DNA of 44,976 nt from a virus: the IMG/VR virus record IMGVR_UViG_3300027895_000002, positions 1 through 44,976 of that record. One strand, given 5' to 3'. Position 1 is the first letter of the stretch. Each line of letters opens with the position of its first letter. The notes under the pieces are model-generated. The model made no database searches, had not been told where the DNA came from, and worked only from the letters and a program-made list of their open reading frames with translations. A program made the translations under genes and the position numbers. Positions 14,832 through 44,976 of the stretch are shown piece by piece.

Positions 14832-16405
14832 GCCCTCAGTTCCTTCTTCGTGGCGTCAGTGATTAAATTCCACACTGGACGGTAGATCTGATCGAAGCTG
14901 ATGTCCTGCTGGCACTGTGCGGTCGAGGTTTCTGCTTTCTGGCAGTGCGACCAGTTGTAGTGCATTTGATGGCAGGCGGGAGCTTCGTTCCTACCCCTTC
15001 CCGGACAGTGAGTGTTCTCGCTCCAGATCGGATATACGTTCGTCCAGTCACGCGTGAGGTTCTCGTGGGTCGAGTGGGAAAGTAATACGACTTTGGGATA
15101 ATCGAATTGGGATGCGGCATTCATCAAACCCGTTTCGGGTCCTATCGCCATATCAACCGTTGCCATGAAGGCAAGCGACTGTCGGATAGACCACTGACCA
15201 CAGGTTCGGTGGACACGTTTCTCCTTCTCCCAGCCTTGTTCAAGAATCTTGGCCGCCTCTCCTCCCAGTAACACGACATCGACGTTGGGGAAGTCGAGCA
15301 TCAGGGATGCGATGACGTTATCCAAACAGGCATGTGTTTTGTGGACCGAGGAACCCGCAAGCGGCCACGCCACCACGTACTCGCCCATCTTCGCCCGTTG
15401 TTTCTTCGCCCACGTCCTCTCATCCTCGGTGGGGAAAAAGCGGATCTGAGGCTTATGGGGTACTTCTGCAATGGCATGCTGCAATTCCAGATAGTTCATG
15501 TTCATGATCTTGTGGCGGATCGCAGGAGGCCAGTGGTGCTGTGTTCTCCCGGGTATGGCGAGGAGCGACCCCTCCACGCTTTCCGACAGGTTCACCCATT
15601 TGTCGTATTTCTTCCGATGATAATCCCAATACTCACCCAGAAGATGATTAGGGACTTGGTCCTTGTCCTGATAGTAAAAAGCGTCGATGTTCGGGTCGTT
15701 ACGCACGACTTCATCACCCGGAGGAGAGGTGTAAAGCGTGACGTGGTAACCTTGGGCTTTGAGGCCCGCGAACACCGACGAAGCCTGAAGGAGATCCCCG
15801 AATGCCCCGTAGCGGACTAACCCACAGGACTTCTTAGGAGGCTCCTTCTTCTTCCAACTCTCCGTCTGTCCGGAGTTCATCTTCCTGAATACGAAGTAGA
15901 GAGAGTATTCCCTCTCCTGATTCCGTTTCTGAAAGTCCACAAGATCCCAGCTACCTGCCCCTCTCATGTACTGGATCACCCGTTCATAGTTCACGTTCCA
16001 CTTGTGATCGGGATTTGCCCCTTCCTCTCCCACCTTCGGGTACTCGTCCTCATCCGGAAGGTAGAGCGTCAAATATCCTTTTGGCTTGATGATCCTCATC
16101 CAATCCCTTAAAGCTCCTGTGACTCTTTCGGGTGCAATGTGCTCCAGCAAGTGAGAGGAAAAACAGAAGTCCATCGAATTAGAAGCGAACATCTCCATGC
16201 GCTCGGCGCTCGGAACGCAGATATCGGGTTTTATGGGATGACCGAAAAGAGCTTCATCGGCCTTGTTATCGACCCCGATGAAATGGGGATAGAGCTTCTC
16301 GATGCCACAGCCGATATCAAGTCCTCTGCCCCTTGTGTATTGCACGATTTCCCACTTCACTTTCGCGGATTCGTTGCACTGGGGGTCGGTTATTTTCCAA
16401 GTCAT
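14828..16405 (-). CDS. Fusion protein: N-terminal class I SAM-dependent methyltransferase + C-terminal glycosyltransferase family 9 (heptosyltransferase-like)
   Basis: MT domain (aa 1-185, about 15851..16405): LDIGCGIEKL (motif I), GVDN, MDFCFSSHLLEH, IIKPKGYL. GT9 domain (aa 190-525, about 14828..15850): LVRYGAFGDLLQASSVFAGLKAQGYHVTLYT, NDPNIDAF, VVAWPLAGSSVHKTH, VVLLGG, SLAFMATVDMAIGPETGLMNAA, then a Cys/His-rich tail. ATGA overlap with the adaptor gene. Confidence 0.85.
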   Translation of the reverse strand: MTWKITDPQCNESAKVKWEIVQYTRGRGLDIGCGIEKLYPHFIGVDNKADEALFGHPIKPDICVPSAERMEMFASNSMDFCFSSHLLEHIAPERVTGALRDWMRIIKPKGYLTLYLPDEDEYPKVGEEGANPDHKWNVNYERVIQYMRGAGSWDLVDFQKRNQEREYSLYFVFRKMNSGQTESWKKKEPPKKSCGLVRYGAFGDLLQASSVFAGLKAQGYHVTLYTSPPGDEVVRNDPNIDAFYYQDKDQVPNHLLGEYWDYHRKKYDKWVNLSESVEGSLLAIPGRTQHHWPPAIRHKIMNMNYLELQHAIAEVPHKPQIRFFPTEDERTWAKKQRAKMGEYVVAWPLAGSSVHKTHACLDNVIASLMLDFPNVDVVLLGGEAAKILEQGWEKEKRVHRTCGQWSIRQSLAFMATVDMAIGPETGLMNAASQFDYPKVVLLSHSTHENLTRDWTNVYPIWSENTHCPGRGRNEAPACHQMHYNWSHCQKAETSTAQCQQDISFDQIYRPVWNLITDATKKELRA

Positions 16406-16414
16406 CCGTTCTCC

Positions 16415-17722
16415 TTACGTGGTCGGCTGCACGATGAACCACGCCACCGTACTGGTGTCGTTGCTTTGGGATGCGAGAATCGTGAACGAGGTTCCGGGAG
16501 TTCTCGCGGAGACGCCAAGTGCCGAAGGGCTCGTAACGGTCCCAAGAGATTGCGCGGTCAGTTGAATGCGGGAATTGGCGGCTACTTGAGTATTATTAAC
16601 CGTTACCGTGCCAGCAACCAATGTTGCAATTCCGGAACTGCAGCCTCCAGTCCCCTCCGCTATATAAAGAGCGCCCCCCGGAGTCGATAGATACCAATTG
16701 CCGGTTTGATCTACGCCAACATTTCCATTTTGAGTGATTAAGCTGATTGATCCCGTGCCCAGCGCATTGATAAGGAGCGTGGCATTGGTTGCGGGACTTC
16801 CTCCGACACCAATAGCGTTAAGCATTACAGTGGGAGGAGTAGTGGCGGGAGTTGTTGTTATCTGCAAAGAACAATTTGGCGATGTCGGGGTTGCTGAGAC
16901 CTGGAATTGCGGCGTGATGATCTCATTGACCGAATACGTCCCGCGAAACCGCATGCCATACTGACAGGCGGTATTGAGGCTGGAATTAAGGAGCGAGCCG
17001 GTAACGGCTTTAGCACCTGAGGTCGAATTGAAGAAAATGCCATCGCCAAATGCAGCGGTGGGATTTCCCTGAATCTGCAACGCATTGACGGAAGGCTGCG
17101 TGCCGATTGCGACACAGACAACTCCATACGAAACACCTCCTGATGCAAGGCACACCGAATCGACTTCGATGGAGATGGAATTAGCCCCAGAAGCAGAAGC
17201 CACGCCAGATGAGTTCATGCCCCATGCGTGGGCACCCGAAGCGGCGGCTTCTCCTTGTGCAAAATCAGCTACGGTATTGCCCCCTCCGGTGACCTTGGCG
17301 TACTGCGCTCTTAAGAAGACGTTGTGATAGGAGCCGTAATTGCTCCCGTAGTTCATCGACAGGAGGTCGGTTGCGTAAACCGGAGGTACCGCATAAGAGA
17401 TGAGGTTATCTACGCGATAGAGCCCTCCGGTGAAGGACACCGAGGGATCGACATACGACCAGACATTCCCCGCTGGTAGGAAGTCATCGCCTGCAAGGGT
17501 AATGACGGTAGGAGAGTAGGGGGAGAGAGAGACAAGCGACCCCAGAACCCCGCCGAGGGGTGCCCACACCCCCGTCGCGGTGACGACCATGACGCCCTGA
17601 TCGGAAGTGATGCAGAGCTTGCCCGGAGCGTAGTTGGAGGCGGCGTACGCGCCGACTAGCTGACTGGAGAGGAATACTCCATTGCCTTGGGGGTTTCTGA
17701 GCCATGCCTCATCGTAGGCCAC
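16415..17722 (-). CDS. Ser/Thr/Gly-rich beta-rich virion surface protein (head or tail fibre-like)
   Basis: 435 aa. Repetitive G/S/T/N/A composition. The C-terminal GTVTVNNTQVAANSRIQLTAQ...FTILASQSNDTSTVAWFIVQP looks like an Ig-like terminal domain. Sits in the structural operon. Confidence 0.5.
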   Translation of the reverse strand: MAYDEAWLRNPQGNGVFLSSQLVGAYAASNYAPGKLCITSDQGVMVVTATGVWAPLGGVLGSLVSLSPYSPTVITLAGDDFLPAGNVWSYVDPSVSFTGGLYRVDNLISYAVPPVYATDLLSMNYGSNYGSYHNVFLRAQYAKVTGGGNTVADFAQGEAAASGAHAWGMNSSGVASASGANSISIEVDSVCLASGGVSYGVVCVAIGTQPSVNALQIQGNPTAAFGDGIFFNSTSGAKAVTGSLLNSSLNTACQYGMRFRGTYSVNEIITPQFQVSATPTSPNCSLQITTTPATTPPTVMLNAIGVGGSPATNATLLINALGTGSISLITQNGNVGVDQTGNWYLSTPGGALYIAEGTGGCSSGIATLVAGTVTVNNTQVAANSRIQLTAQSLGTVTSPSALGVSARTPGTSFTILASQSNDTSTVAWFIVQPTT

Positions 17723-25756: not shown

Positions 25757-26118
25757 TAGTGAAACGACCCCTCTTTGCGCCTCACCCACGAACGGGGGAC
25801 GACAGGTAAAGAGCCATCCCACGGACCCCTCTTTAAGCCAAAGCACTCAAGGAGCTGTCCTCCAAATTCGATTGCAGTATGCCGCACTGCATGGGGGGTA
25901 CCGAGCTTCTCACGGGGAAGTAGAGAGCTAAAGCCTTCACGTCCGATCACGCGGGCTACTTCGCTGGCAATGGCAAGATGCCTTACCACCAAACCTCTTC
26001 CTTGAAATCCAACGATCCAGGGATGGTTTGCGTACGCATCGTTGAGAGCCTTACCAATGTCCATTGCCAACTGAGCATCGGAAGCTTCATCCGCATCACC
26101 GATTTCAATGATGTTCAC
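25756..26118 (-). CDS. Hypothetical protein upstream of the portal gene
   Basis: 120 aa; ATGA overlap with the upstream gene. Confidence 0.5.
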   Translation of the reverse strand: MNIIEIGDADEASDAQLAMDIGKALNDAYANHPWIVGFQGRGLVVRHLAIASEVARVIGREGFSSLLPREKLGTPHAVRHTAIEFGGQLLECFGLKRGPWDGSLPVVPRSWVRRKEGSFH

Positions 26119-27182
26119 GCGCCACCCGCATTAGAACCTGGCTTCTGATAGATACCAGTATTGCCTTGATCCGTGCTGTCGAAGTAGCGCTTGCCCCCGC
26201 CAAAAGCATACACGCGATGATCGGGAGCTGAGTATTCTGAGCCCCACGCCCTCTCCACCATCTCCTGCAAGCTAAAATCCCGCATGGTGACTTTGAGGAT
26301 AGGTTGTACGGGAGGGGCGACTGATGCCTGATAGGCACCCTGAGAGACTCCTAGTGTAACGACAGAATTGAAAGCAACTGAAGTCCCGGCAGAAGGGCTC
26401 TGGTTCGCGACATACCCTGCGGCGTAGGTACTGCTGTAGACCGGAACGTCAAGGTACGAAAGCCCCGCCATGCTGATGAGGGTATTGGCGACAGCGGCAT
26501 TGTCTCCCGTCACGGAAGGGACCAGCACTCCGCTAACGATCATCTCCGCTTGTGTGGTGGTTCCCGTTCCTGTGGAGTCGTAAGCCGTGATCTGGAAGAT
26601 GAAATTGCCGAATGCCGTATAGGTCCCGGTGAACCAGTTGGTCGCGGACGAGAACTGAATCCCCGGAGGCAGATTTCCCCCGGTGATTGCAAAGGTCAGT
26701 GTGTCACCGGATGGGCTTGAGGCGTAGTTCGCAAGGTTCCCGGAAGGCACGGCAGAGCCGATGGTCTGGTTATTGAGAAAGAGGCTCGTCCCCCACACGG
26801 GACCTGCTTCATTGATGTAGACGACTCCCGGCCCATCGATGGTGTTCGAAAGATGCCGGAAGACGTAGTAGGAGAAACTCTGCCTTGAAGTATCCCCCCC
26901 AAAGAGAATCTCTCCCGTCCCGTCCCCGTTGACTTGCAGGGCATAGCCTCCAGGAAAGGACACGAGGGGCACGATGAATACATCGCCCACCAAAACGGCG
27001 GGGTTGGAGCCGGTCTCAAGAGAAAACCCCGAAGCAGGCGGAACGGTACTGGTGCAGTCCTGGTCCTGAAAACCGGCGGTCGCAGGAGAGGGCAGCGCCG
27101 TATAGGCTGCGAGCCCACCGCGCAGGCGATTGGCGGTGTCGCCTACTCTCAGGCCACGGTATACGAGGGTCGCGGCGCTCAC
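26115..27182 (-). CDS. Virion-associated protein with an Ig-like (putative Ig / cadherin-like) domain and a PASTA domain
   Basis: aa 155-215: GDTLTFAITGGNLPPGIQFSSATNWFTGTYTAFGNFIFQITAYDSTG. aa 220-282: VPSVTGDNAAVANTLISMAGLSYLDVPVYSSTYAAGYVANQSPSAGTSVAFNSVVTLGVSQG, which follows the PASTA consensus (vP.v.G....A...L...GL......s.....G.V..QsP.aGt.v...s.VtL.vS.G). Confidence 0.7.
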   Translation of the reverse strand: MSAATLVYRGLRVGDTANRLRGGLAAYTALPSPATAGFQDQDCTSTVPPASGFSLETGSNPAVLVGDVFIVPLVSFPGGYALQVNGDGTGEILFGGDTSRQSFSYYVFRHLSNTIDGPGVVYINEAGPVWGTSLFLNNQTIGSAVPSGNLANYASSPSGDTLTFAITGGNLPPGIQFSSATNWFTGTYTAFGNFIFQITAYDSTGTGTTTQAEMIVSGVLVPSVTGDNAAVANTLISMAGLSYLDVPVYSSTYAAGYVANQSPSAGTSVAFNSVVTLGVSQGAYQASVAPPVQPILKVTMRDFSLQEMVERAWGSEYSAPDHRVYAFGGGKRYFDSTDQGNTGIYQKPGSNAGGA

Positions 27183-27760: not shown

Positions 27761-28465
27761 TTAGAAGCCCTGATTTTCAAAGAGTAGAAGCCCACTCGAA
27801 GCGGCTGATGCTGGGAGATAGGTAGATACATTAGCCACCCACTCCCCTGCCGTGGCCAGAGTGCCGAAGTTAGCCGTTACTGCCGCATTCGATGCCAACT
27901 GCTTATACGCCACTGAGGTCGGAAAGTGATTATTGGTCGTGTCCTGATAGATATTCGTCCACCCCGAAGGGGTACCCCATCCACCGACAGGATAGGTACC
28001 ACTCTGATCTCCCAAGCACGATACGGCAATGGCTAGGTCGGTGGAGCTTCCTAAAGTACCTGTAGCTCCGCTAGAAACAGGACCTGTGTTCTGAGTGGAT
28101 TCCTGATCCACTCCCGTTCCGGTATCAAAGGTATTCAAACCGGACCATTCGGTGAGGATCGCCTGCCCGTAGGAGTTAGCCGAAGTGCCGTACTGTGCGG
28201 TTGCGGTAACGGTATGTGTTCCGGCATTCGCGGTGGAGAGTCTCATAATGTCGCAGGAGAACCGTGAACCGCCATTCTCCTGATCGATGCCGTAAGTACC
28301 CTGAGAGTCAGAGGCCACGATGATGGTACTGCCGTTCGTGGCGTCGAAATTTGCATGCGTGACGAGAAGGATCAACGTGTTTCCTGATGCCACTCCCGAT
28401 AGCGTCACGGTCGTTGCGAGAGTGGCGGCAAAATACCCGACGGCAGAGGTTTGAATCAGGCTCAC
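27761..28465 (-). CDS. Hypothetical jelly-roll/lectin-like protein, start re-assigned
   Basis: GTG at 28465 overlaps the TGA of the giant gene (GTGA). The track ORF extends to 28501 inside the upstream gene. Confidence 0.5.
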   Translation of the reverse strand: MSLIQTSAVGYFAATLATTVTLSGVASGNTLILLVTHANFDATNGSTIIVASDSQGTYGIDQENGGSRFSCDIMRLSTANAGTHTVTATAQYGTSANSYGQAILTEWSGLNTFDTGTGVDQESTQNTGPVSSGATGTLGSSTDLAIAVSCLGDQSGTYPVGGWGTPSGWTNIYQDTTNNHFPTSVAYKQLASNAAVTANFGTLATAGEWVANVSTYLPASAASSGLLLFENQGF

Positions 28466-31400
28466 GGGCTGTAGCCGATTTGCGTCACGGTCCCGTCCCA
28501 CGCACCCATGTTGCAGACGGTTCCTGTGGAAACTCCTCCCACCCGGCCCTTGCCTAAGAGCGGGGAGTTACTCGCCGGGACGAAGTTTGCAGGATTATTC
28601 CCCGCTCCTCCTACGAAGGAAGGCGGCCCGACAATCGAATGCGCATCCTTACCAGAAACCCCCTGCCAGGTTGCTAGAGTCGTGTATTGAGAGCCTACAG
28701 GATTGTTGTTCCAGGTGGAGTTAGCCGCCCAGCAGTTGTAATCCATTGTGCCGATGTTGGCGATTGCACAGGTAGAAGCTCCCAGTCCTCCCACAGATGC
28801 CGTGCTGATAAAGACGTTGTTCCAGAAACCTAAGGGAGCAGAAGACTGGTATTCGTTGATGACCCATCCCCCATTGATCGCTCCTGCCATGCTCACGGTG
28901 TTGTTGAAGCAGTTTACCGTAGAAGGTACGGCTTGATACGTCGTATTGGTCGGGTAGTACAGCGTCCCTAAATCCGCCTGCAACAAAGCCTTTACCTGAC
29001 TTCCAAGATCGATGATGTTGTGATGGATCTGATACGGTGTAAGAGCGGTGGAGGATGAGGGATGAGTCGCCTGTGCGTTCTCCCAACCCGTGAAAGGACC
29101 TCCGTCAGAGCCGTTCATCTGGTAGATGTAGTTATAACGAGCAATCGTGCCTTGGTTAGGTCCGTGGCCGTTCAGCTCGTACTTGTCGTAAATCGCCGTA
29201 TTGGCGTTGTAGAGCGTGCAGTATTCGATGACAGTGTTGATGTTCGAGTAGAGCTGAATGCAGGCGGCATTATGGGTGGCTTGAGCGTTCTGCATGCCGT
29301 GAATCAGGCAGTTGTGTACCAAAGCCCCATTGACGCATTCGAGCGAGATGCCGAGCACGTTGTCGCCCTCGGCCGCCGCCGTCCCGGTGATATTGGAGAT
29401 CTGGCAGTTCAGGATCTGCGGACCCGATCCCGCAACCGTATTGCCCGACATGTAGAAACTAATGGCCCCATACACCTGTCCTGTGGAGGAGGGATTGGAG
29501 ATGTTCTGCACTACAATTCCATCGAGCGTGCAGTAGCACACGTTCCCCGCCCCGTACTGGGTGTTCATGCCGATGATGGGATAGGGGGTGAGAGTTCCTC
29601 CTCCTGTGGGAGCACCATTTAAGACCGCTAGGCCGGGTGAATAGACCCCAGCAGAGTTACAGGATGCGATGTAGGTCGGATTACCCGCAGTGCCGGGAGG
29701 GATCTTGAGGAGCAATGCGGCAGTTCCGACCTGTCCACCGGATGAGAAGCCCGAAACGTCGTAATTGCCTCCTATGAGGCCCACACTCGCCCCTGCCATC
29801 AGGGCGAAGTTGGTCGCATTGCCTCCTGTTGTGGCAAGACTTGTGATTGCCCACGCCTGAGAGGGTGAGGTGCCGGAATTTGAATCATTCCCTGTCGATG
29901 AGATGAAATACTGAAACTCCACCTGACCGTAGACACTCGGCAATTGGGTGTTGAGCGGCATCGAGGGGATTGCGGCTGAGACCTGAGCGATACTGACACC
30001 TGATCCCGTGGTGTTGTCGAACCAGAACATCTTGTTGGGCTTGGTAGAACCGCCATTTGCAAGAGCGCCGTTAAAGGCGAAGTTGTAGTACTGCTGAGGG
30101 GTGTAGTTACCCCACTGTCCTGTCGCATCCGGATACTGCATTTCGTTAATGCAGGGGAGGACGTTCACATAGCTCGTGCCTCCGATGTTACCGTTATGCA
30201 CCATGTTGGACGTGAGCTGGGTCAAACCGGGAGAGTCATCCGGTCCTAACCCGCAACACGCATTCGCCTTCATTGCGGCGAATATGGCTTGCATCTGTGC
30301 ATTCGAGCCGAAGTAGTTCGGGGATATCCCTACCTCCGAGGCTTTGAACCCTCCCGTTCCCCTCACCTGGTTGAAGAAACTTACGATCTGATTGGCGTAG
30401 TTCTGATCGTTGATCCCTGAAGAGCCTGCTACGGCGGTTTCAGGACCTCTAATTCCCTCGAAGGTGAGATTGGCGTCGTACTGCGCGGCATAGGCATTGT
30501 GCATCGCAAGGATAATGGTGGTGTTGAAGCTCTGATCCACCTGCGCAATCATCGCGAGTTCCCCATCCCACTGTGTTCCGGAAGGTGCGTAGTTGAATCC
30601 CAGTCCTCCTCCATTGGCGGTGTTGTAGAGATCGGGAAGTACTCCGAAAGTCGCAGCCGTGGGAGTGCCGGAGAAGGTCTGTGCAACGAACTGCCGGTCC
30701 TCCCACCCCAACTCGAACTGTATCCCGGCGTTCTTACATGCAGTTAAGAACCAGTCCACGAGGTTAAAGCCACCCCCATTCGGACCTAATGTTCCGAATC
30801 GATACACGACATTGTTAAGGCTCGTGCCCTGCATCAACTGGCGAAGATTCACAATGATGAATACGCCAACGAACCCCATTGCTTTGGCGTTATTGATTCG
30901 GGAGAGCCAGTTCGCACCATTCGTACCGGAGTTGTTCTGATCCAGCTCGATCCAGTGGCCGGGAGTGAATTTATAAGCTCCTGTCGCCTGCTGGGCGGTG
31001 GTGAAGCTATAGGTGGTAGAGGCCGCAGAGATATTGAGGTCGGTGTCCTGAGCCGTTGCGGTGACGTTGTAATGAGTATTGGGAATGAGGTTGGAGAGCG
31101 TCAGAGTCCAGTTAGCCAGAGTCTGAATGTTCGTCTGGGTCAGCGTGGCGGTGATCGATACCCCGGCATTGGTGTTCCCTGTAAATCCTACATACAGGGC
31201 GTTGCCCATGTTCTGCGTCAGCGTGCCGACTGGTGTTGAGCCATTGAAGAATGTATAGCTGCTGCCGTTCTTGATGAGAATCAGCGTCGTGGGTCCGCTG
31301 TTCGCTACGGTTTGCAGAACCGTGGAGTTCCCCCCTGTACTGGGACGGTAGTAGCTCGAAACCCCTTTGCCACCTGAGAACGACGTGCACTGCATCCCGA

Positions 31401-33108
31401 CAAAAGCACTGTTGTTCGCCAAGGAGACACGTGCCTGGATACCTACATTTGAGTATGGATTGGCCGGATTGAAGCCCGATATCTGAAAAGTCAAGACACA
31501 ATAGGCGCTGTTGATCTGCTGGTAAGCAAAAGCGAGTGCATCGGTCAGCGGGTAACTGGGGTCTAAAGCGGTAGTCGTGATCGTGACAGAGGAGCCAGTC
31601 TGGGTGAAGACCGAGGTCTGAGTTCCTATATCTGCAAAGGTGAGCGTGGGCTTGTTACCAGCTGCGCTTGAGACGACCTGTGTACCTATCCCCGAGACCG
31701 TCACGTTGTACTGCTGCATCCCGCCCCAGAGGTATCCGGCAGGATTGGGGTCGGATGAAGGTAATCCTTGAACTAGTGCAGAAGTGGTGAGGATATTGGT
31801 TGCCGAGATGCCTACCGGGATCGTAGGAGGATAGGGGTCGGTAACTCCCGAGCCATTGCCGCGCACGCTGAACGTGTTGGAATTCGCCGAGAGACCGGAG
31901 GAGGTTAAGGTCGCGGTGAAGTAAAGCCCAGAAACCTCAGGAGCTACAGTGACCCCGTCATAAGTTAAGTACGTCCCATCGAATGCAAAACCAGTCGTTC
32001 CCGTCCACACACGCCACTGCTGCATCGACCAGCCGAGCGTTGCAATACCACCCGAGTCATTCCCATTGCCCGTGTAGGCGAGTTCCGCGTTGCCGTGTAC
32101 CGTCTGTAGCGTGTACTGCGTAGGGTCGGTCGAGATCGCAGGACCCACGGAGGCTGCGTTAATCGCTATTAGAGCGGCCTGGAACTGCGCCTGAGTCGTA
32201 ACCCACGAGAATGGCAGAAAGCCGCTCCACGGCGTTCCTGTCGAGAGGGTGCTGTGAGGCAGGGGTGTGACATAAAGCCCTGCACCCGTTCCCGATCCTC
32301 CTAGAGGGCAGTTGATCTGATAGGTTCCGCTCGGACTGTCGTAGCTGATTCCTACAGGCTGATTGGTCTCTCCCACCCCGGGGAAGATCTTGACCCCAAG
32401 GCTTACGAAAATCCCTCCGGGGCCTGCAAAGCGCGCATCCGCCAGCCAATATGCCAAACCGCCCATAGAGGCCGTTGCTACGGGAATCTGCAAGAGCATT
32501 GACTGGTAGAACGAGGAACCAGAAAAAACTGAAGGTAAAACTCCTCCCAAGCTGTAGTTAGGAAAGCCGCTGTACTTGCCATCGGGAGAGGTGCCAAGTT
32601 CCGCCGAACTCATGTAACCGCCCACAACCGGGCCTTCCATCTGAAAGCCGCTAGAGTTTGCGGTAGATTGTAGGCAAAGCTGCGCGGTAGCCGGATTGAT
32701 TGCGGTGTATCCGGTCAGTGCCCCCATGCTGTTCAAGTTAGAAACCAGGGTGCCGCTCGGACTGTTGTACGGGTTGGGCTCCCACTGCAGCAGCACTAAC
32801 TTACCCGTCGGGATGCTCTGCGAAGGGGTAGCCAGGGGCACGATCATGTTTCCCGCTATTCCGGTCTCTACCGGCTGCGAGAAGATGCTGGATTGGACTT
32901 TCCCCGTGGGGTCGTTAAGAACGCACGTACAACCCGTTGTGGGGGTGATATAGGTCGTGAGAATGTCAACCGACAGGGAACCTGTCTGATTGATGAAATT
33001 CGGTACGCTCGTCCACTGCGGCTGTGGGGGAGTACCACCAGGATAGCCCCAGTATCCAATGCCGTTACCAGCAGGCGTGACAGGCCAGAAATCAGTAGCG
33101 AGTGTCAA
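28462..33108 (-). CDS. Giant (1548 aa) multi-domain depolymerase-like protein: unknown N-terminal region, lectin/jelly-roll-like region, FN3-like module, TIM-barrel glycosidase-like region, right-handed beta-helix (pectin-lyase fold) C-terminal domain
   Basis: FN3-like LSNLIPNTHYNVTATAQDTDLNISAASTTYSFTT (about 30990..31150). Alternating beta/alpha region with ELGWEDR and EGIRGPE (about 29930..30985). PbH1-type repeats NCQISNITG...LVHNCLIHGM...IEYCTLYN (about 28700..29925) ending SGKDAHSIVGPPSFVGG...PASNSPLLGKG. Confidence 0.7.
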   Translation of the reverse strand: MTLATDFWPVTPAGNGIGYWGYPGGTPPQPQWTSVPNFINQTGSLSVDILTTYITPTTGCTCVLNDPTGKVQSSIFSQPVETGIAGNMIVPLATPSQSIPTGKLVLLQWEPNPYNSPSGTLVSNLNSMGALTGYTAINPATAQLCLQSTANSSGFQMEGPVVGGYMSSAELGTSPDGKYSGFPNYSLGGVLPSVFSGSSFYQSMLLQIPVATASMGGLAYWLADARFAGPGGIFVSLGVKIFPGVGETNQPVGISYDSPSGTYQINCPLGGSGTGAGLYVTPLPHSTLSTGTPWSGFLPFSWVTTQAQFQAALIAINAASVGPAISTDPTQYTLQTVHGNAELAYTGNGNDSGGIATLGWSMQQWRVWTGTTGFAFDGTYLTYDGVTVAPEVSGLYFTATLTSSGLSANSNTFSVRGNGSGVTDPYPPTIPVGISATNILTTSALVQGLPSSDPNPAGYLWGGMQQYNVTVSGIGTQVVSSAAGNKPTLTFADIGTQTSVFTQTGSSVTITTTALDPSYPLTDALAFAYQQINSAYCVLTFQISGFNPANPYSNVGIQARVSLANNSAFVGMQCTSFSGGKGVSSYYRPSTGGNSTVLQTVANSGPTTLILIKNGSSYTFFNGSTPVGTLTQNMGNALYVGFTGNTNAGVSITATLTQTNIQTLANWTLTLSNLIPNTHYNVTATAQDTDLNISAASTTYSFTTAQQATGAYKFTPGHWIELDQNNSGTNGANWLSRINNAKAMGFVGVFIIVNLRQLMQGTSLNNVVYRFGTLGPNGGGFNLVDWFLTACKNAGIQFELGWEDRQFVAQTFSGTPTAATFGVLPDLYNTANGGGLGFNYAPSGTQWDGELAMIAQVDQSFNTTIILAMHNAYAAQYDANLTFEGIRGPETAVAGSSGINDQNYANQIVSFFNQVRGTGGFKASEVGISPNYFGSNAQMQAIFAAMKANACCGLGPDDSPGLTQLTSNMVHNGNIGGTSYVNVLPCINEMQYPDATGQWGNYTPQQYYNFAFNGALANGGSTKPNKMFWFDNTTGSGVSIAQVSAAIPSMPLNTQLPSVYGQVEFQYFISSTGNDSNSGTSPSQAWAITSLATTGGNATNFALMAGASVGLIGGNYDVSGFSSGGQVGTAALLLKIPPGTAGNPTYIASCNSAGVYSPGLAVLNGAPTGGGTLTPYPIIGMNTQYGAGNVCYCTLDGIVVQNISNPSSTGQVYGAISFYMSGNTVAGSGPQILNCQISNITGTAAAEGDNVLGISLECVNGALVHNCLIHGMQNAQATHNAACIQLYSNINTVIEYCTLYNANTAIYDKYELNGHGPNQGTIARYNYIYQMNGSDGGPFTGWENAQATHPSSSTALTPYQIHHNIIDLGSQVKALLQADLGTLYYPTNTTYQAVPSTVNCFNNTVSMAGAINGGWVINEYQSSAPLGFWNNVFISTASVGGLGASTCAIANIGTMDYNCWAANSTWNNNPVGSQYTTLATWQGVSGKDAHSIVGPPSFVGGAGNNPANFVPASNSPLLGKGRVGGVSTGTVCNMGAWDGTVTQIGYSP

Positions 33109-34730
33109 CTCGCGTACTCAGGCTCTAGAGCCGTGTAGTCCACTACCTCGGGCGTAACCGGTTCTAAGTCGTAAATGCGGCTTAAAGCGTCTGGGAGGTC
33201 TTTCAACCCCCCAAACGGGAAAAAGCTCAATTCAAGCTTGAGCCTGTCAGCTAAATCGTACTTCTGGTCGTTCTCGTCCTTTCTCGTGATGGGACGCGAG
33301 AGACGGTATTCATATCCCGAAGCAATCATGTTTCTCTGGGTTCTCGTAAGGGCTTTGTCGTCAGTTGGATATGGCAGGTAGAGTCGGTGACCTCGCACGT
33401 CAGGGACCAGTCTCTGTACTCGATCCACTTTGCTTCTCTCTCCATCTCGCGACCATTCAAGCTCAGCAATTTCAAAACTGCGTCGCTCGATGCGCTGCCT
33501 TTCATGAAAGTAGTCGATATCCGCTTGGGCACCATATTTCTCATACCCCACGTGTAAACCTACCACTCCGGGTGCTGATCTCCACTTGGCCCACAAGTCC
33601 CGCATCCACTTCCAGCGGTCCATGAGATCCATCTTGTGATCTACACCGTCGAGGAGATACTTGTTCCCTGCTGAGTCTACGCCCACCACCACCATAGCGG
33701 TATTCGCAGAGTCTTTCTTCATCGATCTGGCAGGATCGACCATCAGGTAGGCCATCAGGGTTAAAGGGCGGACCTCGTAGACTTGGAGGTCTTCGACGTG
33801 GAACATGCGCTGATGTCCGGCAAGAGGGTTTGCAAGTAATTGGCAAGCAACTGTTGCTTCACCCTGATCCCGGATTCGACGAGCCCACTCAGTTGCACTA
33901 AAGAGAACAGGTACACCGTCAAGCGTTCCGTCATCGGTGGCAGGATAGATTCGTGCCTTCGCAGCTCCGCGCTTAATGATCTCGGCGTAAGTGTCTGCAT
34001 AGTGATACCTCGTGCCTATGATCCATTTGCGGCCATTCATCGTGCCCAAATTGTCTGAGAGTTCCCACGCTTCTGTAGTCTTAGTGATCTGCTCAGGAGT
34101 ATTCACACTCTCCCGTGTCACGACGTCGTCATAGATCATCAGGGCAAAGTGTTTGGAGGTAGGCTGTCCGTCTACCAATCCGTGTGCTTCTATAGTCGCT
34201 TCCTTGGGATTCCCCTCACGCTTGCAGATGAGGCCAGCATCCAGTGACCAGCTAGGGGATTCAAACTCAGGATTGGCGTACAGCACGTCAGGGAAGGCAG
34301 CCTTCAGGTTCTCATTGGCCTCCAGCTCCCGCTTGATCTGCGCCAAAAACCCTTTGGCAATCGGCTTCGTATGGCTGAAGATTGCCTTGGGGCTCTCTTG
34401 GTCTTTCAGGATCTCCTGCGTCCCACCGGCAAACGTAATAATGGTCGATTTGTAATGCTCGCGTGCCCAGATGTCGCAGTACCCGTCAGGATTGGCTTCG
34501 ACTTCTCTGCAGCGCTCGTAGACCCAAGTGTTCCACGCGTCATAACGCCTAAGCATTTTGATGAGTAGGTAGTATCGGTCGTTAAGACAAAGCCACCGTA
34601 CCCCTTCGTGGTCTCTGCCACGATTGTCAATCTCGTCCCATACGGTCAATACTTCATTGAACGGTAGGGCGTGTACGCGCATCGAGAGCGCTTTGAATCT
34701 TTGCTGCAAGAGACTCGGAGCCGCCAACAT
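33105..34730 (-). CDS. terL: Terminase large subunit
   Basis: Walker-A-like DIWAREHYKSTIIT, MIYDDV Walker-B-like, and a C-terminal nuclease region with VDPA and GVD acidic motifs. ATGA overlap with the giant gene. The start could be ATG 34682 instead of 34730. Confidence 0.9.
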   Translation of the reverse strand: MLAAPSLLQQRFKALSMRVHALPFNEVLTVWDEIDNRGRDHEGVRWLCLNDRYYLLIKMLRRYDAWNTWVYERCREVEANPDGYCDIWAREHYKSTIITFAGGTQEILKDQESPKAIFSHTKPIAKGFLAQIKRELEANENLKAAFPDVLYANPEFESPSWSLDAGLICKREGNPKEATIEAHGLVDGQPTSKHFALMIYDDVVTRESVNTPEQITKTTEAWELSDNLGTMNGRKWIIGTRYHYADTYAEIIKRGAAKARIYPATDDGTLDGVPVLFSATEWARRIRDQGEATVACQLLANPLAGHQRMFHVEDLQVYEVRPLTLMAYLMVDPARSMKKDSANTAMVVVGVDSAGNKYLLDGVDHKMDLMDRWKWMRDLWAKWRSAPGVVGLHVGYEKYGAQADIDYFHERQRIERRSFEIAELEWSRDGERSKVDRVQRLVPDVRGHRLYLPYPTDDKALTRTQRNMIASGYEYRLSRPITRKDENDQKYDLADRLKLELSFFPFGGLKDLPDALSRIYDLEPVTPEVVDYTALEPEYAS

Positions 34731-34950
34731 CTAATCGGTGCTCCACGGTTGCATTAAGCGTCTGTGTTGCCTTGCCATCAAGCCGGTCAGCCACCTCACG
34801 AATGGCGAACATATCCCCTTGCTCAGCCCTGTCCAGAAGCTTCTCAGCGATCTTCCTAAGCCTGTCAGGCCCCTGTGCAACGGCTTTCTCTAGCTCGTGC
34901 AGGAAAAGCTTTGATTTAGCCCCGAGCGTGTTGCCTTTCTCAAAGGGCAT
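34654..34950 (-). CDS. terS: Terminase small subunit candidate
   Basis: 98 aa. N-terminal PFEKGNTLGAKSK motif typical of small DNA-binding terminase subunits. Immediately upstream of, and overlapping, terL. Confidence 0.6.
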   Translation of the reverse strand: MPFEKGNTLGAKSKLFLHELEKAVAQGPDRLRKIAEKLLDRAEQGDMFAIREVADRLDGKATQTLNATVEHRLDVGGSESLAAKIQSALDARTRPTVQ

Positions 34951-34961: not shown

Positions 34962-35213
34962 TTAATCTTCTGATTCTACGATTGTTTCATCTGTGAAACA
35001 GGGCCTTGAGTCCTCATCGTCATCGGGCTCAGTTATCTCCGTGATAACCCGAATAGGCGTCATAACCTGTAAGAGGTCCGTAGGCGTCTCTACTGGTGTA
35101 TAGCTCAAGCCTTGCCGGGAGATTGGCATTGGAGCGATGAGCGATAGTAGCGTCTGTATCGTAGTCGCCTGAAACGATAGGTACATCACGCCATGCCTTT
35201 GGAGCGCATACAT
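34962..35213 (-). CDS. Hypothetical protein with an acidic C-terminus (frame choice uncertain)
   Basis: This frame fills the hldC-terS gap (8-nt and 11-nt spacers). The competing ORF 35029..35256 in another frame would leave a 78-nt gap. Confidence 0.35.
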   Translation of the reverse strand: MYALQRHGVMYLSFQATTIQTLLSLIAPMPISRQGLSYTPVETPTDLLQVMTPIRVITEITEPDDDEDSRPCFTDETIVESED

Positions 35214-35221: not shown

Positions 35222-35626
35222 CTATGGGCTAACGCCCTCATGGCTTTGGGTTTCATTCGCCTTGAGTGTAGCCGTGGTGCTAAAGCCAGGCAAGCGCCCG
35301 ATGATCTCCAATCCTCCTGCCCACTTGTAGCCGTTGAACTCCTGATCCTGTCCCCTGAAGAGGACGTCAGGCTTTATCGAGCGGATGAGATCTGCTACCC
35401 GGCCATCAAAAGGGATGCACGAGTCTGCAAACGTGTTCACCCTCATCATTCGATCAGAGAGCCCTTCAGAGGGTCTACCCACCCCTTTGAGGCGAAGCAC
35501 TGACGCATCTGTGTTAACCGCGACGATGAGCCAGTCACACCTCTTCCTTGCTTCTCTGAGGAAGTATCGGTGGCCGTCGTGGAATGCGTCGAAGCATCCG
35601 TTTGCAAAGCCAATGCGCATAACCAT
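35222..35626 (-). CDS. hldC: D-glycero-beta-D-manno-heptose 1-phosphate adenylyltransferase (RfaE/HldE domain II type cytidylyltransferase fold)
   Basis: RIGFANGCFDAFHDGHRYFLREARKRCDWLIVAVNTDASVLRLKGVGRP aligns with E. coli HldE domain II [45 protein letters not shown]. Confidence 0.9.
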   Translation of the reverse strand: MVMRIGFANGCFDAFHDGHRYFLREARKRCDWLIVAVNTDASVLRLKGVGRPSEGLSDRMMRVNTFADSCIPFDGRVADLIRSIKPDVLFRGQDQEFNGYKWAGGLEIIGRLPGFSTTATLKANETQSHEGVSP

Positions 35627-35651
35627 AACAATTCCTCTTTCGAAATTCTCA

Positions 35652-35801
35652 TCAGTACGGTTCTCCCCAATACGGACGGTTCACCGCCATCCATACTATG
35701 CCGCCCACCACCAAAGCCACAACACCAGCAACAACCAACACGACCTTGGGCAAAGATGAAATCGCCAAAGCCGCCATAACCCAAACAGCAATTAGAATCA
35801 T
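35652..35801 (-). CDS. 49-aa 2-TM membrane micro-protein between hldA and hldC (below the ORF-track cutoff)
   Basis: My own translation: MILIAVWVMAALAISSLPKVVLVVAGVVALVVGGIVWMAVNRPYWGEPY. Its ATG overlaps the hldA TGA (ATGA) and is preceded by GGAGG. Confidence 0.55.
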   Translation of the reverse strand: MILIAVWVMAALAISSLPKVVLVVAGVVALVVGGIVWMAVNRPYWGEPY

Positions 35802-36586
35802 AATGCCTCCAGAAGCTCATTCTTTGAACATGTAGCTGTTCCTGTCTTTCGGACCACAACACCAGCAGCATGGTTCGCAAGACGCGCGGCCTCTTCAATC
35901 CTCATGCCGCCGCATCCCAATACCGCCGCAACCACGGCAACCACCGTATCTCCCGCTCCGGTCACATCGAATACCTCTCGTGCAACAGCGGGGTAATTAA
36001 CCTTGGCATTCTCCTTCCAGAGAGTGATCCCCTCAGGTCCCCTCTTTTCCATGATTACCGGAAACTCCTTCCGTGCGGAGACTACCCCGGACAATTCCTT
36101 TGCGTTTGGGCAAATAACCATTGCCCCTCGATACTTATCCCAATGAGTTCCCTTGGGATCGACAACTACCAAGCGCCGGTATTTCCTCGCTGCAGAACAC
36201 ATCTCCGGCGTCAGCATCCCCTTGGCGTAGTCCGAAAAAACAATCACATCGCTTTGCGATTCACGCGCTGCTTGCAGCTGTTCTTCCGTAGGACTCGCAA
36301 GGATATCTTTATCTACCCTGAATAACTGCTGATGCCCCACCATGTAGCGATGCTTGGTGGATATCTCCTTGGCGAAGATCGTGTCTACCTGACAGCCTAA
36401 TGCCTCTAAATTAGCCGCGACATTCGCAGCACCACCCGGACGGGCTTTCTGTGAATCCTCTATGAATATCGGCACCGGAGCTTCAGGACTCAATCGGTCC
36501 ACATGGCCGAAATGGTACAGATCCCTTAATGCGTCACCAATGACGAGTACCCGCACGTTTTTGAACTTTTCGATTAGGTCTCGCAT
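35798..36586 (-). CDS. hldA: D-glycero-beta-D-manno-heptose 7-phosphate kinase (RfaE/HldE domain I, PfkB-type sugar kinase)
   Basis: VLVIGDALRDLYHFGHVDRLSPEAPVPIF....ARPGGAANVAANLEALG, FSDYAKG, VVVDPKG..W.KYRGA, DVTGAGDTVVAVVAAVL and ANHAAGVVVRKTGTAT are all collinear with E. coli HldE domain I. It is shorter than the E. coli domain (262 aa). Confidence 0.9.
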   Translation of the reverse strand: MRDLIEKFKNVRVLVIGDALRDLYHFGHVDRLSPEAPVPIFIEDSQKARPGGAANVAANLEALGCQVDTIFAKEISTKHRYMVGHQQLFRVDKDILASPTEEQLQAARESQSDVIVFSDYAKGMLTPEMCSAARKYRRLVVVDPKGTHWDKYRGAMVICPNAKELSGVVSARKEFPVIMEKRGPEGITLWKENAKVNYPAVAREVFDVTGAGDTVVAVVAAVLGCGGMRIEEAARLANHAAGVVVRKTGTATCSKNELLEAL

Positions 36587-36602
36587 CGATTAGGTCTCGC
36601 AT
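36571..36602. repeat. Perfect 16-bp tandem duplication (cgattaggtctcgcat x2) spanning the hldA start codon
   Basis: 36571..36586 equals 36587..36602. In mRNA sense this reads ATGCGAGACCTAATCG twice. The downstream copy starts hldA, and the upstream copy supplies the last codons and stop of the 54-aa ORF. Confidence 0.95.
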
Positions 36603-36754
36603 TTACGATAGTAAGTATCTTCTCTATGCCCGTAGAAGTCTCTGGAACCAAACCTAGCTCTCTCAACACGGCTAAGCCAAACCCATTCGTTGTTAATCGT
36701 CTTAACCGGGAACCACGCAAACCAAACCCACCATGTCCTCCCGCCTCTTGCCAT
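36590..36754 (-). CDS. 54-aa Trp-rich hypothetical protein (below the ORF-track cutoff)
   Basis: My own translation: MARGGRTWWVWFAWFPVKTINNEWVWLSRVERARFGSRDFYGHREDTYYRKCET. The ATG is 1 nt after the cupin stop, and GAGG lies 7 nt upstream. Confidence 0.5.
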   Translation of the reverse strand: MARGGRTWWVWFAWFPVKTINNEWVWLSRVERARFGSRDFYGHREDTYYRKCET

Positions 36755-36755
36755 G

Positions 36756-37079
36756 TCAAGCCTCTGATGGGATCAGCCTCACACAATCTTCAGGATCATC
36801 GTGGCTTGACGCTTCAACCACTGTACCGGGCACCAAACATCTCAATCTGTGGCATCGGCCAGAAGGAATAATAGCATGTGAACCGGCTTTCAGCTCCAGT
36901 GTTTTACCCTGCATTTCAAGCATAAAGTGACCGCTTGAGACGTAGAAGCACTCGTGTTTGAGTTCGTGGAAATGCAGGCTTGAGGCGATAGGTTTCTCGT
37001 AGACCAGAAGCTTCATGCAGTAACTTTTGTTGTGGATCAAGAGCTCGTGCCCCCAAGATTTGTCTACTCGCTCAACCAC
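36756..37079 (-). CDS. Cupin-fold protein, phosphosugar (mannose-6-phosphate type) isomerase-like
   Basis: KSWGHELLI..KSYCMKLLVYEKPIASSLHFHELKHECFYVSSGHFMLEMQGKTLELKAGSHAIIPSGRCHRL fits the cupin pattern WG.E......Y..K.L......S.H.H..K.E...V..G..........L..G....IP....H. GTG start. Confidence 0.65.
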   Translation of the reverse strand: MVERVDKSWGHELLIHNKSYCMKLLVYEKPIASSLHFHELKHECFYVSSGHFMLEMQGKTLELKAGSHAIIPSGRCHRLRCLVPGTVVEASSHDDPEDCVRLIPSEA

Positions 37080-38212
37080 GCCTTAAGTTCCTTGACGTGC
37101 TTTGACCATGTGCGCTCTCTTCTCAAGAATTGCGTATCAGAGTTTTCAAAGTTGCCGTATGGGTCGGCGTACCTTAAAGCTCGCACGTAGCGATGCACAT
37201 GCTCCAGAATTTCATCAATTTCATCCGGATCGGACTCATACCATTCCAAGCTCGTATCTGGGAAAAAGTACTCGCTCGATGCTGGGATAGGGGTCTGTCT
37301 GGTCAAACAGTGTCCTAACTGGGCCAAATCCTTCATCCCTGTGTGATAGCCGTAAATAACAGGCACCCCACAGGCCATAGCCTCCATCACCGGCAGGCTC
37401 TGACAGCTCTCACACCTCGAAGGGGCTAACATGACGTCCATCTCCCTCAAGATAGGAGGTAAGCAGTAATTCGGCACCACCCCCAGATCAATGACTTTAG
37501 CGGGGTCTATGCCGTTATCGTCTGCCCATCTCGAAATGTCTAATCCCTTCTCGTTAAGCCACAGGGGAGCGTCTGTGAGCCCTTTAAACCCGTTAGCCAT
37601 GTCCGCATGAGGGCTCTGCCATAGGGTCACCAGACGCGCCTCCGGGTGCTTTTGGACGAAGCGCTTGAATGCAAGCAAAACCACATCTTGGGCCTTGCGG
37701 TACTCGACTTTCCCAGCAGAGTAGATGTAGAAAGCCTCCGGCAAAGCTCCTGACTTAGATCCGGGACAGAATAGGTTCGGGTCAATGCCCTCATGAATAA
37801 CTTTGACCTCTCGCCCTGTGGCATTTTCGAGTATCTCCTTGTTCCACGATGAACCTGTTAACAAGTGGGTGTAGCGGGAGAGTTTATCAATGGCATCCCG
37901 GGTGTCTGGTTTCTCCACGATCACCCTTCCGACAAGAGTTTTAGGGCCTTCCTTCGAGCCCTGAAGGTCATTCCCCACAGGATCTATCCACACACAGTCG
38001 TCCGTGTACTCGTACTTCCTGGAAATGGCTTTGAGGACACTCCTGTAATGCAAGGCATCCATCCCCATGAAATGACCGTGTTCCAAGGGATATGGGGTGT
38101 GAACCTCATAGTCGGGATCATTGGCTAGTTGGGCAATGAGATTGCTTCCCACCACCCCCCAGCCTCCATAGGCGTGGACGCCCCAGTTAAGGATTAGTTG
38201 TTTCTTAGCCAC
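37064..38212 (-). CDS. GT-B fold glycosyltransferase (family 1/4-like)
   Basis: C-terminal signature MLAPSRCESCQSLPVMEAMACGVPVIYG (E..........EAMA.G.PVI). 382 aa. Confidence 0.75.
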   Translation of the reverse strand: MAKKQLILNWGVHAYGGWGVVGSNLIAQLANDPDYEVHTPYPLEHGHFMGMDALHYRSVLKAISRKYEYTDDCVWIDPVGNDLQGSKEGPKTLVGRVIVEKPDTRDAIDKLSRYTHLLTGSSWNKEILENATGREVKVIHEGIDPNLFCPGSKSGALPEAFYIYSAGKVEYRKAQDVVLLAFKRFVQKHPEARLVTLWQSPHADMANGFKGLTDAPLWLNEKGLDISRWADDNGIDPAKVIDLGVVPNYCLPPILREMDVMLAPSRCESCQSLPVMEAMACGVPVIYGYHTGMKDLAQLGHCLTRQTPIPASSEYFFPDTSLEWYESDPDEIDEILEHVHRYVRALRYADPYGNFENSDTQFLRRERTWSKHVKELKAWLSE

Positions 38213-38484
38213 GCAATCGCCTCATCCAACGATAAAACGACAGGTGTTTCAGTGTCCTCTAGAAACAGATCCTGATCGGCCTGATCCTTCCTTTTGCGCC
38301 TCTTACCTGTTTTCGTAGGCGTCTTACACTCCATCGTGCCGAGCCTGAAGGTCTGGTGAAGGTTTGACCAGTAGAGGAGCAATAGGTCACAGGGCCAGCC
38401 TATGATCCAGACCCTGACTCCCATCTTTCTCAGGCCATCTACGATGTCCTGCTGGCTGGAATCTACTTTACGGGCGTAAGCCAT
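38194..38484 (-). CDS. PD-(D/E)XK-type nuclease (VRR-NUC / resolvase-like), start re-assigned
   Basis: MAYARKVDSSQQDIVDGLRKMGVRV...GWPCDLLLLYW....LGTMECKTP gives a D...E.K motif. Track ORF start is 38511; ATG 38484 is preferred. Confidence 0.6.
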   Translation of the reverse strand: MAYARKVDSSQQDIVDGLRKMGVRVWIIGWPCDLLLLYWSNLHQTFRLGTMECKTPTKTGKRRKRKDQADQDLFLEDTETPVVLSLDEAIAWLRNN

Positions 38485-38573
38485 ACTTCCCTTCGACCAC
38501 AGGCAATGCACTTCAAGATGGTGCGTAGCCTCTTAACCTTGATCTTCACCTTTCCACCGCAGGGACAAATCAT
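38463..38573 (-). CDS. 36-aa zinc-ribbon micro-ORF (CPCG ... CIACG)
   Basis: My own translation: MICPCGGKVKIKVKRLRTILKCIACGRREVWLTPVK. GGAGA lies 8 nt upstream, and the ORF starts immediately after the TGA of another micro-ORF. Confidence 0.35.
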   Translation of the reverse strand: MICPCGGKVKIKVKRLRTILKCIACGRREVWLTPVK

Positions 38574-44502: not shown

Positions 44503-44976
44503 ATGAAAAAAACCAGCACGGCCGGGGGCTGGCCTCCGAATGTCCCGGCCACTTCTATGAATCTGGACGCGCTAAAACAGGAAATGTTGCGCCCTGCTAT
44601 CCAGCTTGCGCCTCTCATGGAGTTTCGCGGCCAAAAGAATCCAGCGCGCATTCATGCGCTTTGGAATTGGTCCTACGCAGCCTATCTCAACGAATGCGAG
44701 GATATAGGCGCGATAACGAAGCTCTATAGGGAAGGCGGAGAACTGCCGCACTTCTGCGGACTACACGCAAAATATCTTGATTACCTCTCAGTGAGGAGTT
44801 TTTTTAGTCGAGTCGTGTTGTCTCCCAAGGTCAAAGCGTTGGTGCCAGACTTTGGCGATTACATCGCTTCGATACTGCCCTATGTTTTCCAGCTCACACG
44901 GGTAGCCAATCGTGAACATCAACCAAAGAAATTGCGAGTCTGGAAGAATCAAGCTAAACCGGATGAAATCCGATAC
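44503..44976 (+). CDS. N-terminal part of the wrap-around gene (continues at base 128 after removing the duplicated 127 nt); alternative start ATG 44557
   Basis: The ORF is open to the last base of the window. It is not in the supplied track because it has no stop codon inside the window. It is in frame with 2..628. Confidence 0.6.
   Translation, partial: MKKTSTAGGWPPNVPATSMNLDALKQEMLRPAIQLAPLMEFRGQKNPARIHALWNWSYAAYLNECEDIGAITKLYREGGELPHFCGLHAKYLDYLSVRSFFSRVVLSPKVKALVPDFGDYIASILPYVFQLTRVANREHQPKKLRVWKNQAKPDEIRY
44850..44976. repeat. Terminal direct repeat, copy 2 (identical to 1..127)
   Basis: See copy 1. Confidence 0.97.

Follow-up and report, generated by a model that had tools for sequence, protein, structure and literature searches.

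Nucleoside diphosphate (NDP)-heptoses are essential precursors of the Gram-negative lipopolysaccharide (LPS) core and strong innate-immune agonists (ALPK1). In bacteria, the pathway to ADP-L-glycero-β-D-manno-heptose uses the SIS-type isomerase GmhA, the kinase and nucleotidyltransferase (NTase) halves of HldE, the phosphatase GmhB and the epimerase HldD. Tang et al. 2024 (Science) found a viral isomerase, kinase and NTase that make ADP-heptose in vitro and reported the phosphatase to be generally absent from viruses; as summarized in PMC11461863 and PMC11573728, the published viral scheme comprises a GmhA-type isomerase and no phosphatase. Why viruses make NDP-heptoses is an open question (PMC11573728). 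Here, we analyze IMG/VR virus record IMGVR_UViG_3300027895_000002 (positions 1 to 44,976), a complete phage genome of 44,976 bp referred to below as the window, which at 35222-38212 on the minus strand, directly upstream of its terminase genes, encodes an HldA-like kinase and an HldC-like NTase together with a small cupin and a glycosyltransferase (GT). The kinase and NTase are homologous to domains I and II of E. coli HldE (41% and 38% identity) and the predicted intermediates are those of the bacterial pathway, but the two HldE halves are separate, a cupin takes the place of the SIS-type GmhA, and neither GmhB nor HldD is present. We consider it likely that this region is a phage cargo module that would make a nucleotide-activated heptose in the infected cell with the cupin as its isomerase. 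Split phage hldA/hldC genes are already known; what is new is the cupin that seems to replace the usual first enzyme, here as well as in many other phages and microbes.

The cupin (36756-37079, minus strand; 107 aa) lies outside the GmhA SIS family and is proposed only for the same job, and the proposal comes chiefly from its distribution. Local profiles were scanned over about 90 loci, from which 56 distinct viral loci with both kinase and NTase were counted, and GmhA was counted where H61, E65, D94, T120, S121, S124, Q172 and H180, or the E65D/Q172E variant, were found. The cupin is present in 40 of these loci and GmhA in 12; none has both, and four have neither, one of which is cut by a contig end. 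A full GmhA with H61, E65, Q172 and H180 (E. coli numbering) is encoded in L001, L002, L014-L020 and L095. The place immediately ahead of the kinase is taken by the cupin in some loci and by GmhA in others, and in a rough neighbor-joining (NJ) tree of the kinases, drawn without support values, the two states must have switched at least five times. The clade that contains the window kinase is itself interleaved, with the cupin in the window, L009 and L011 and GmhA in L001, L095, L015, L016 and L020.

Gene order and fusions add to this pattern. The viral loci L011/L012 read cupin-HldA-HldC-GmhB-like HAD phosphatase (130.8 bits for the last in L011). Cellular cupin loci, compared at the operon level, include a Saccharibacteria metagenome-assembled genome (MAG; L102) with the order cupin-HldA-GmhB-HldC-HldD, in which HldD scores 344.9 bits against a curated cut-off of 274.6, a Thermoplasmata MAG in which the cupin and HldA genes overlap, and a Bacteroides contig with the order cupin-NTase-kinase. 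The cupin is fused to the NTase in four of the 40 cupin-bearing viral loci, and metagenomic proteins (P0169, P0199, P0249, P0220, P0214) join it to the pathway as NTase-cupin, kinase-cupin and a 535-aa kinase-NTase-cupin, the last mirroring the known GmhA-HldA-HldC tridomain enzymes (PMC11573728). Together, these arrangements make it quite probable that the cupin is a sedoheptulose-7-phosphate isomerase. The initial annotation of this DNA had supposed that no isomerase is encoded and that the step is left to the host or bypassed. That claim is not upheld: the cupin, never found with GmhA in the 56 loci, is most likely the isomerase, and so the phage would not be short of this step. With 1,501 clusters (50% identity, E <= 1e-10), this is a large family, and the literature we searched contained no paper linking GmhA, sedoheptulose or heptose with a cupin. 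On balance, we favor the broader view that these cupins are an undescribed and widespread group of sedoheptulose-7-phosphate isomerases that would take the place of GmhA in most heptose cassettes of phages, the cultured cyanophages P-SSM2, S-CAM1 and P-TIM68 among them, in candidate phyla radiation bacteria and in some archaea, such that, counting the mini-HAD phosphatases described below, many phages would have a complete NDP-heptose pathway and the window sugar would be placed on a phage-specified glycoconjugate such as the virion.

The sequence and predicted structure of the cupin are compatible with this role. It matches Pfam Cupin_2 (1.3e-9) and, just under the cut-off, MannoseP_isomer (1.1e-4; 22.8 bits against 23.6), for which homologues in fusion proteins reach 32.9-37.3 bits, with Lyx_isomer at 36.6 bits. 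A His/His/Glu/His metal site (H36, H38, E43, H77) is invariant across 81 homologues, as are the two motifs that contain it, S-L-H36-F-H38-x4-E43-x6-G50 and G66-x5-P72-x-G74-x2-H77, and residues K7, W9, E12, K23, K41, E89, S91, D98 and R101. The AlphaFold2 (AF2) model is a single barrel with a mean predicted local distance difference test (pLDDT) score of 92.2, and its Foldseek matches include the ~110-aa Thermococcus phosphomannose isomerases (PMIs; 7zvy, 7zvm) among other small cupins. Known cupin isomerases, namely the Pyrococcus/Thermococcus phosphoglucose isomerase (PGI), the type II and small archaeal PMIs and D-lyxose isomerase, have in common with the window cupin a small barrel and the His/His/Glu/His site, whereas identity to them is only ~17-20% and the context here is heptose activation rather than glycolysis or GDP-mannose synthesis. 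The GmhA step, from a ketose phosphate to a manno-aldose phosphate, is PMI chemistry with one more carbon. Because the Foldseek and PDB profile matches are to generic small metallocupins, we take the function from genomic context.

The kinase (35798-36586, minus strand; 262 aa) and NTase (35222-35626, minus strand; 134 aa) can be assigned at the family level, and the sequence evidence supports an HldA-like and an HldC-like enzyme, respectively. The kinase matches NCBIfam TIGR02198 rfaE_dom_I at 6.5e-72 and 242 bits, short of the equivalog cut-off of 345, compared to 36.6 bits for ribokinase, and HldA/HldE models outscore every other PfkB model by ~200 bits. It also matches Pfam PfkB (7e-21) and phrog_8133 (8.8e-44), and in the PDB it matches Burkholderia HldA (4e84) at 7.4e-51 and other PfkB kinases at about 1e-4. 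The HldA-type N-terminal motif GDxxxDxY...R(I/L)SPEAPVP and the PfkB GAGD motif are present as VIGDALRDLYHFGHVDRLSPEAPVP and DVTGAGDTV, each aligned to its counterpart in E. coli HldE and B. cenocepacia HldA. The NTase matches TIGR02199 rfaE_dom_II at 2.8e-24 and 85.6 bits (cut-off 181.5), with the next specific family at ~22 bits, as well as Pfam CTP_transf_like (1.7e-10) and phrog_7878 (4.9e-19). Its best PDB match, HldC 5x9q (1e-11), is tied with an ethanolamine-phosphate cytidylyltransferase. The HxGH, VNxDxSxxxLKGxxRP and STT motifs are kept, in the forms FHDGH, VNTDASVLRLKGVGRP and GFSTT. The initial annotation had read these genes as the two halves of HldE in separate open reading frames (ORFs), and the profiles and motifs bear this out at the family level; neither a ribokinase nor a generic cytidylyltransferase is the best homologue.

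In the route that we envisage, the cupin would convert sedoheptulose-7-phosphate to D-glycero-D-manno-heptose-7-phosphate by metal-dependent aldose-ketose isomerization, a step proposed from comparative genomics in which it would stand in for the unrelated SIS enzyme GmhA. The HldA-like kinase would, by its family, phosphorylate C1, and a host GmhB or other phosphatase would remove the 7-phosphate, the phage encoding none. The product of the NTase would most likely be ADP-heptose. The STTR5 motif (F/L)XXGRSTT marks CTP/UTP-promiscuous enzymes, although it is not strictly required (PMC11573728); neither the C-terminal motif of the window NTase (RLPGFSTT) nor that of E. coli (FEDGCSTT) has this form, and promiscuity is therefore not predicted, leaving ADP-heptose as the default product. 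When all 65 ORFs encoded in this complete genome were scanned with Pfam, only 19 families were matched, with no SIS, HAD or SDR epimerase domain among them, in agreement with the earlier statement that GmhA, GmhB and HldD homologues are missing. The window has no 1xpj-like phosphatase either. The D-glycero product predicted at that time likewise follows, as a matter of logic, from the absence of HldD, and the sugar would stay in that form. The adjacent GT4-like GT may then build a glycoconjugate from the heptose. With the cupin as a non-homologous isomerase, the window cassette would become a variant of a known pathway that carries a directly testable enzyme prediction.

Reference cyanophages contain cassettes of the same kind. 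Split kinase/NTase pairs of 30-38% identity are among the annotated genes of P-SSM2, S-CAM1, S-T4, S-SSM7 and P-TIM68, and the viral NDP-heptose enzymes of the cyanomyophage "LPS gene" clusters (P-SSM2, S-CAM1, P-TIM68) are, as in the window, a monodomain kinase and a monodomain NTase accompanied by the same cupin, although these phages are T4-like and the window phage has a genome of ~45 kb and an SU10-type portal. The cyanophage cassette abuts tail-fiber genes. Its cupin is labeled "cysteine dioxygenase" (phrog_7851; L119 5044-5400, L118 5026-5379, L004 6326-6757), a label that is probably wrong given that the proteins belong to the window cupin family. Four viral loci and the cultured cyanophages at first seemed to hold both the cupin and GmhA, in that a 107- to 114-aa ORF annotated as "phosphoheptose isomerase" lies beside the cupin (L119 4719-5063, P-SSM2 PSSM2_311; L118 4719-5042, S-CAM1 SXBG_00218; L004 6757-7095, P-TIM68 gp195). 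These ORFs are not SIS proteins, and we rejected them as GmhA counter-examples because all GmhA residues are absent; their hhalign probability against GmhA is 0.2%, and they have no Pfam match. They instead have invariant DxDxT, T..R, GKP and DD motifs and profile-match the HAD-like structures 9iqw (1e-19) and 1xpj (6e-15), so that they are probably HAD-like mini-phosphatases and likely the sugar-bisphosphate phosphatase. Read in this way, the cyanophage cassette would be NTase-kinase-phosphatase-cupin-epimerase, and viruses may not lack the phosphatase step as reported. The viral cassettes depart from the published scheme, as summarized in PMC11461863 and PMC11573728, at two steps: the cupin fills the isomerase slot in the window and in 40 of the 56 loci, and some cassettes carry GmhB-like or 1xpj-like HAD phosphatases.

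The GT (37064-38212, minus strand; 382 aa) raises the question of where the heptose would go. Pfam bears out both the GT and the cupin named in the initial annotation, the GT matching Glyco_trans_1_4 (3.9e-11) and Glycos_transf_1 (1.8e-9) above their cut-offs. Its AF2 model (pLDDT 91.9; predicted template modeling score 0.92) is a GT-B fold with a Glycos_transf_1 C-terminal domain, and the best Foldseek matches are the retaining GT4 enzymes PimA, a chlorovirus NY2A GT, BshA, MshA and WaaG. No GT9 heptosyltransferase, BAHT or T4 β-GT is among the top 50 matches, and Pfam found no Glyco_transf_9 in this or any other window ORF. Many ~40-kb contigs encode GT homologues (50-60% identity) just ahead of the large terminase gene TerL, whether or not heptose genes are present, and across this phage family the GT is the part of the pre-terminase slot that stays constant. 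It adjoins the heptose module in three different gene orders (in the window and L009, and in L095/L096), and this repeated adjacency suggests a functional link. Going by gene adjacency, the GT is the foremost candidate for the user of the heptose in the window genome, a proposition on which we are evenly divided.

As acceptor, we prefer the virion or another protein, followed by a host envelope glycan and, last, DNA. Structure and viral-structure searches with the GT returned generic GT4 enzymes only, and a PDB profile search had no match. The clues that favor protein or virion glycosylation are weak. A GT-methyltransferase pair heads the packaging and structural genes in relatives, and on a 4.3-Mb bacterial contig (L094 6411-11380) two GT paralogues of ~40% identity lie on either side of a methyltransferase and come after a TPR/Glyco_transf_41 protein, an arrangement that suggests protein-directed glycosylation. 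Many GT homologues also match Pfam "GT4-conflict", for which the window GT, at 15.6 bits, stays below the cut-off of 26. Virion glycosylation is established for the chlorovirus capsid and for the capsid or tail of mycobacteriophages, where it is carried out by GT and O-methyltransferase genes. Those systems employ virus-encoded cytoplasmic GTs, often with a methyltransferase, and relatives of the window have Methyltransf_24-GT pairs. We know of no report of heptose on a phage virion.

Several observations weigh against the cassette as we read it. The 56 loci do not represent phylogenetically independent cases, and the NJ tree of the kinases has no support. A relative with an SU10-type portal (L010) has a cupin homologue (6001-6372; 53% identity) and, within 6 kb of it, neither a kinase nor an NTase; the isomerase model does not explain this lone cupin. 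By structure search, KdgF, oxalate decarboxylase and the CapF epimerase domain, among others, are as good a match to the window cupin as the isomerases. Compared to bacterial HldA, the kinase is missing two segments and is about 50 residues shorter, two deletions that are common to all phage forms (phrog_8133 spans 246 residues), and both the kinase and the NTase fall below their NCBIfam equivalog cut-offs. Five of the eight GT-bearing relatives have no heptose genes, and in at least eight relatives with heptose genes the sequenced flank contains no GT, indicating that each part can work alone and that the GT may use another donor. GT4 enzymes normally retain configuration and use α-linked donors, and the ADP-heptose users that we know of are GT9 or BAHT enzymes; we know of no GT4 heptosyltransferase.

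Some of these points would fit a cupin that is not the isomerase, with heptose-7-phosphate supplied by host GmhA and the cupin acting later as an epimerase, anomerase or other modifier in the manner of the CapF cupin domain or an RmlC-type enzyme. Foldseek does return the CapF cupin domain and an "RmlC-like cupin", an SDR "epimerase" adjoins the cupin in most cupin-type viral cassettes, as expected of cupin-SDR sugar-modifying pairs, and L010 holds the cupin alone. Even so, we regard a later-acting cupin as unlikely. No SDR accompanies the cupin in the window, L009 or L011. Epimerases of the RmlC type act on a 4-keto substrate and do without a metal, in contrast to the 3His-1Glu site that is invariant in this family. 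A downstream modifier should also co-occur with GmhA on occasion, which the cupin does in none of 52 loci, and once the other enzymes of the Saccharibacteria and cyanophage operons have been matched to their steps, the isomerase step and the cupin are the only two left unpaired. A different objection concerns the substrate, in that the kinase and NTase could activate another sugar phosphate, such as a hexose or a different heptose epimer that a PGI-like, and not a PMI-like, cupin would produce. The sub-threshold scores (242 against 345 bits for the kinase and 86 against 181 for the NTase), the two kinase deletions and the equal PDB match of the NTase to the ethanolamine-phosphate enzyme would be in keeping with this, but the lead of the HldA/HldE models over other PfkB models, the HldA-specific N-terminal motifs and the presence of a bona fide ADP-glyceromanno-heptose 6-epimerase and GmhB in cellular operons of the same cupin type make it very improbable. 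Related viral enzymes, moreover, are reported to have made ADP-heptose (PMC11461863).

We give least credence to a cassette that hypermodifies phage DNA, in which the GT-B enzyme would place heptose on a hydroxymethylated pyrimidine as a defense against restriction. There is precedent for such a role: a phage cluster of HAD/APH-like enzyme, cytidylyltransferase and GT-B put mono- and di-heptose on 5-hydroxymethylcytosine (5hmC) in E. coli, its GT-B enzymes resemble BshA and MshA as the window GT does, and clusters of this type, which like the window combine heptose activation with a GT-B, can lie near terminase or other packaging genes (bioRxiv 10.1101/2023.12.21.572611). In contrast to the window, however, those clusters use an APH/HAD-fusion kinase and need methyltransferase/TET or ThyS genes. 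None of the required functions, either a C5-methyltransferase with a TET-like oxygenase or a dCMP/dUMP hydroxymethylase, is recognizable among the 65 window ORFs, and T4 β-GT is missing from the top 50 structural matches of the GT.

Returning to the heptose module with a cupin isomerase, its position can be compared across the phage family. The TerL relatives at 62-74% identity (L001-L007) are all uncultured, and identity to any isolate is 24% or less. In the window and L009, the slot ahead of the terminase genes reads GT-(small ORF)-cupin-kinase-NTase; in L011/L012 it reads cupin-kinase-NTase-GmhB-like phosphatase; in L001, L002 and L014-L020 it reads GmhA-kinase-NTase; and in L095/L096 it reads GmhA-kinase-NTase-methyltransferase-GT. 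L005, L115, L116, L117 and one further contig have a GT homologue (50-57% identity), usually with Methyltransf_24 ahead of it, and no heptose genes. Sugar cargo beside the packaging genes is thus a trait of the family and not peculiar to the window genome. The initial annotation had called nucleotide-sugar genes next to packaging genes unusual, a view that finds no support given this family slot, the cyanophage annotations, the existence of PHROGs for both enzymes, and the at least 582 IMG/VR contigs that encode a relative according to a degenerate-pattern scan. The occurrence of GT, heptose and GT-plus-heptose variants at one locus in one phage family offers a natural comparison set for phage glycosylation targets. 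If the cupin is an isomerase, then surveys based on GmhA undercount the organisms and viruses able to make heptose nucleotides, inhibitors directed at GmhA would miss the cupin route, and reference cyanophage annotations need correction.

Within the window, the cassette genes are tightly packed and, as the initial annotation had described, their stops and starts overlap or nearly abut, with overlaps or gaps of 1-25 nt. The GT and cupin ORFs share a 16-nt overlap. A Trp-rich micro-ORF (36590-36754, minus strand; 54 aa) fills the space between cupin and kinase exactly, with gaps of 1 nt to the former and 3 nt to the latter; GAGG lies at -10 ahead of it, and its only match is a weak one to phrog_18133 (2.7e-5). 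The kinase stop overlaps as ATGA the start of a hydrophobic micro-ORF (35652-35801, minus strand; 49 aa), which has GGAGG at -9, probably forms two membrane spans (hydropathy reaches 2.8 over 19 residues) and is followed by a 25-nt gap to the NTase. Both micro-ORFs are plausible genes. Between the NTase and the terminase genes lies an 83-aa ORF (34962-35213, minus strand). The 49-aa and 83-aa ORFs have no family match in Pfam, NCBIfam or PHROGs, and neither the two micro-ORFs nor the 83-aa ORF has a homologue in the related loci compared, although L011 also has ORFs of 60 and 42 aa between kinase and NTase. A conserved 98-aa protein directly upstream of TerL (34654-34950, minus strand) has no family match and would be the small terminase by position only; homologues of 29-37% identity occupy the same position in L001, L002, L003 and L005. 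TerL itself (33105-34730, minus strand; phrog_38, 2.7e-36) marks the downstream edge of the cargo slot. Its longest ORF overlaps the 98-aa ORF by 77 nt (34654-34730), and the true TerL start may lie further downstream. On the other side of the cassette, a 105-aa ORF (38194-38511, minus strand) upstream of the GT has a syntenic counterpart in L009, where an ORF of 44% identity immediately precedes the GT; in L005 the identity is 27%.

The cassette belongs to a long minus-strand gene array running from ~40.2 kb down to ~1.8 kb of the window and is co-oriented with the structural genes; the term "late strand" used for it earlier denotes this shared strand only. Promoter and terminator scans of the window gave chance-level results. 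The genome has identical 127-bp ends (1-127 and 44850-44976), which reflect either a terminal repeat or a circular assembly. It has no tRNA genes, no integrase or DNA polymerase was recognized in it, and a nucleotide similarity search against known phages found no match to the window. Several other minus-strand genes bear on glycans or the virion. A 525-aa protein with an N-terminal SAM-methyltransferase domain (14828-16405) lies among the structural genes and might be tied to glycan or virion modification. It is preceded by a 435-aa protein (16415-17722) with a C-terminal, tailspike-type K1-lyase_C domain, and a 355-aa protein with He_PIG and PASTA domains is encoded at 26115-27182. Directly after TerL is a 1,548-aa ORF (28462-33108), at the position of which relatives encode proteins of 1,277-1,294 aa with a faint cellulase match. 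Taken together, the K1-lyase_C, He_PIG-PASTA and 1,548-aa proteins suggest that the virion targets a capsule or glycan. A 440-aa PurD-like ATP-grasp protein (6671-7993; GARS_A and GARS_C) is encoded among the tail and structural genes, and the phage has no other purine genes. Lastly, in L011/L012 a protein of the Acb2/Tad1-hairpin family, which comprises anti-CBASS/anti-Thoeris sponges, is encoded at 4309-4695, 1.3 kb upstream of the cupin-type heptose cassette.

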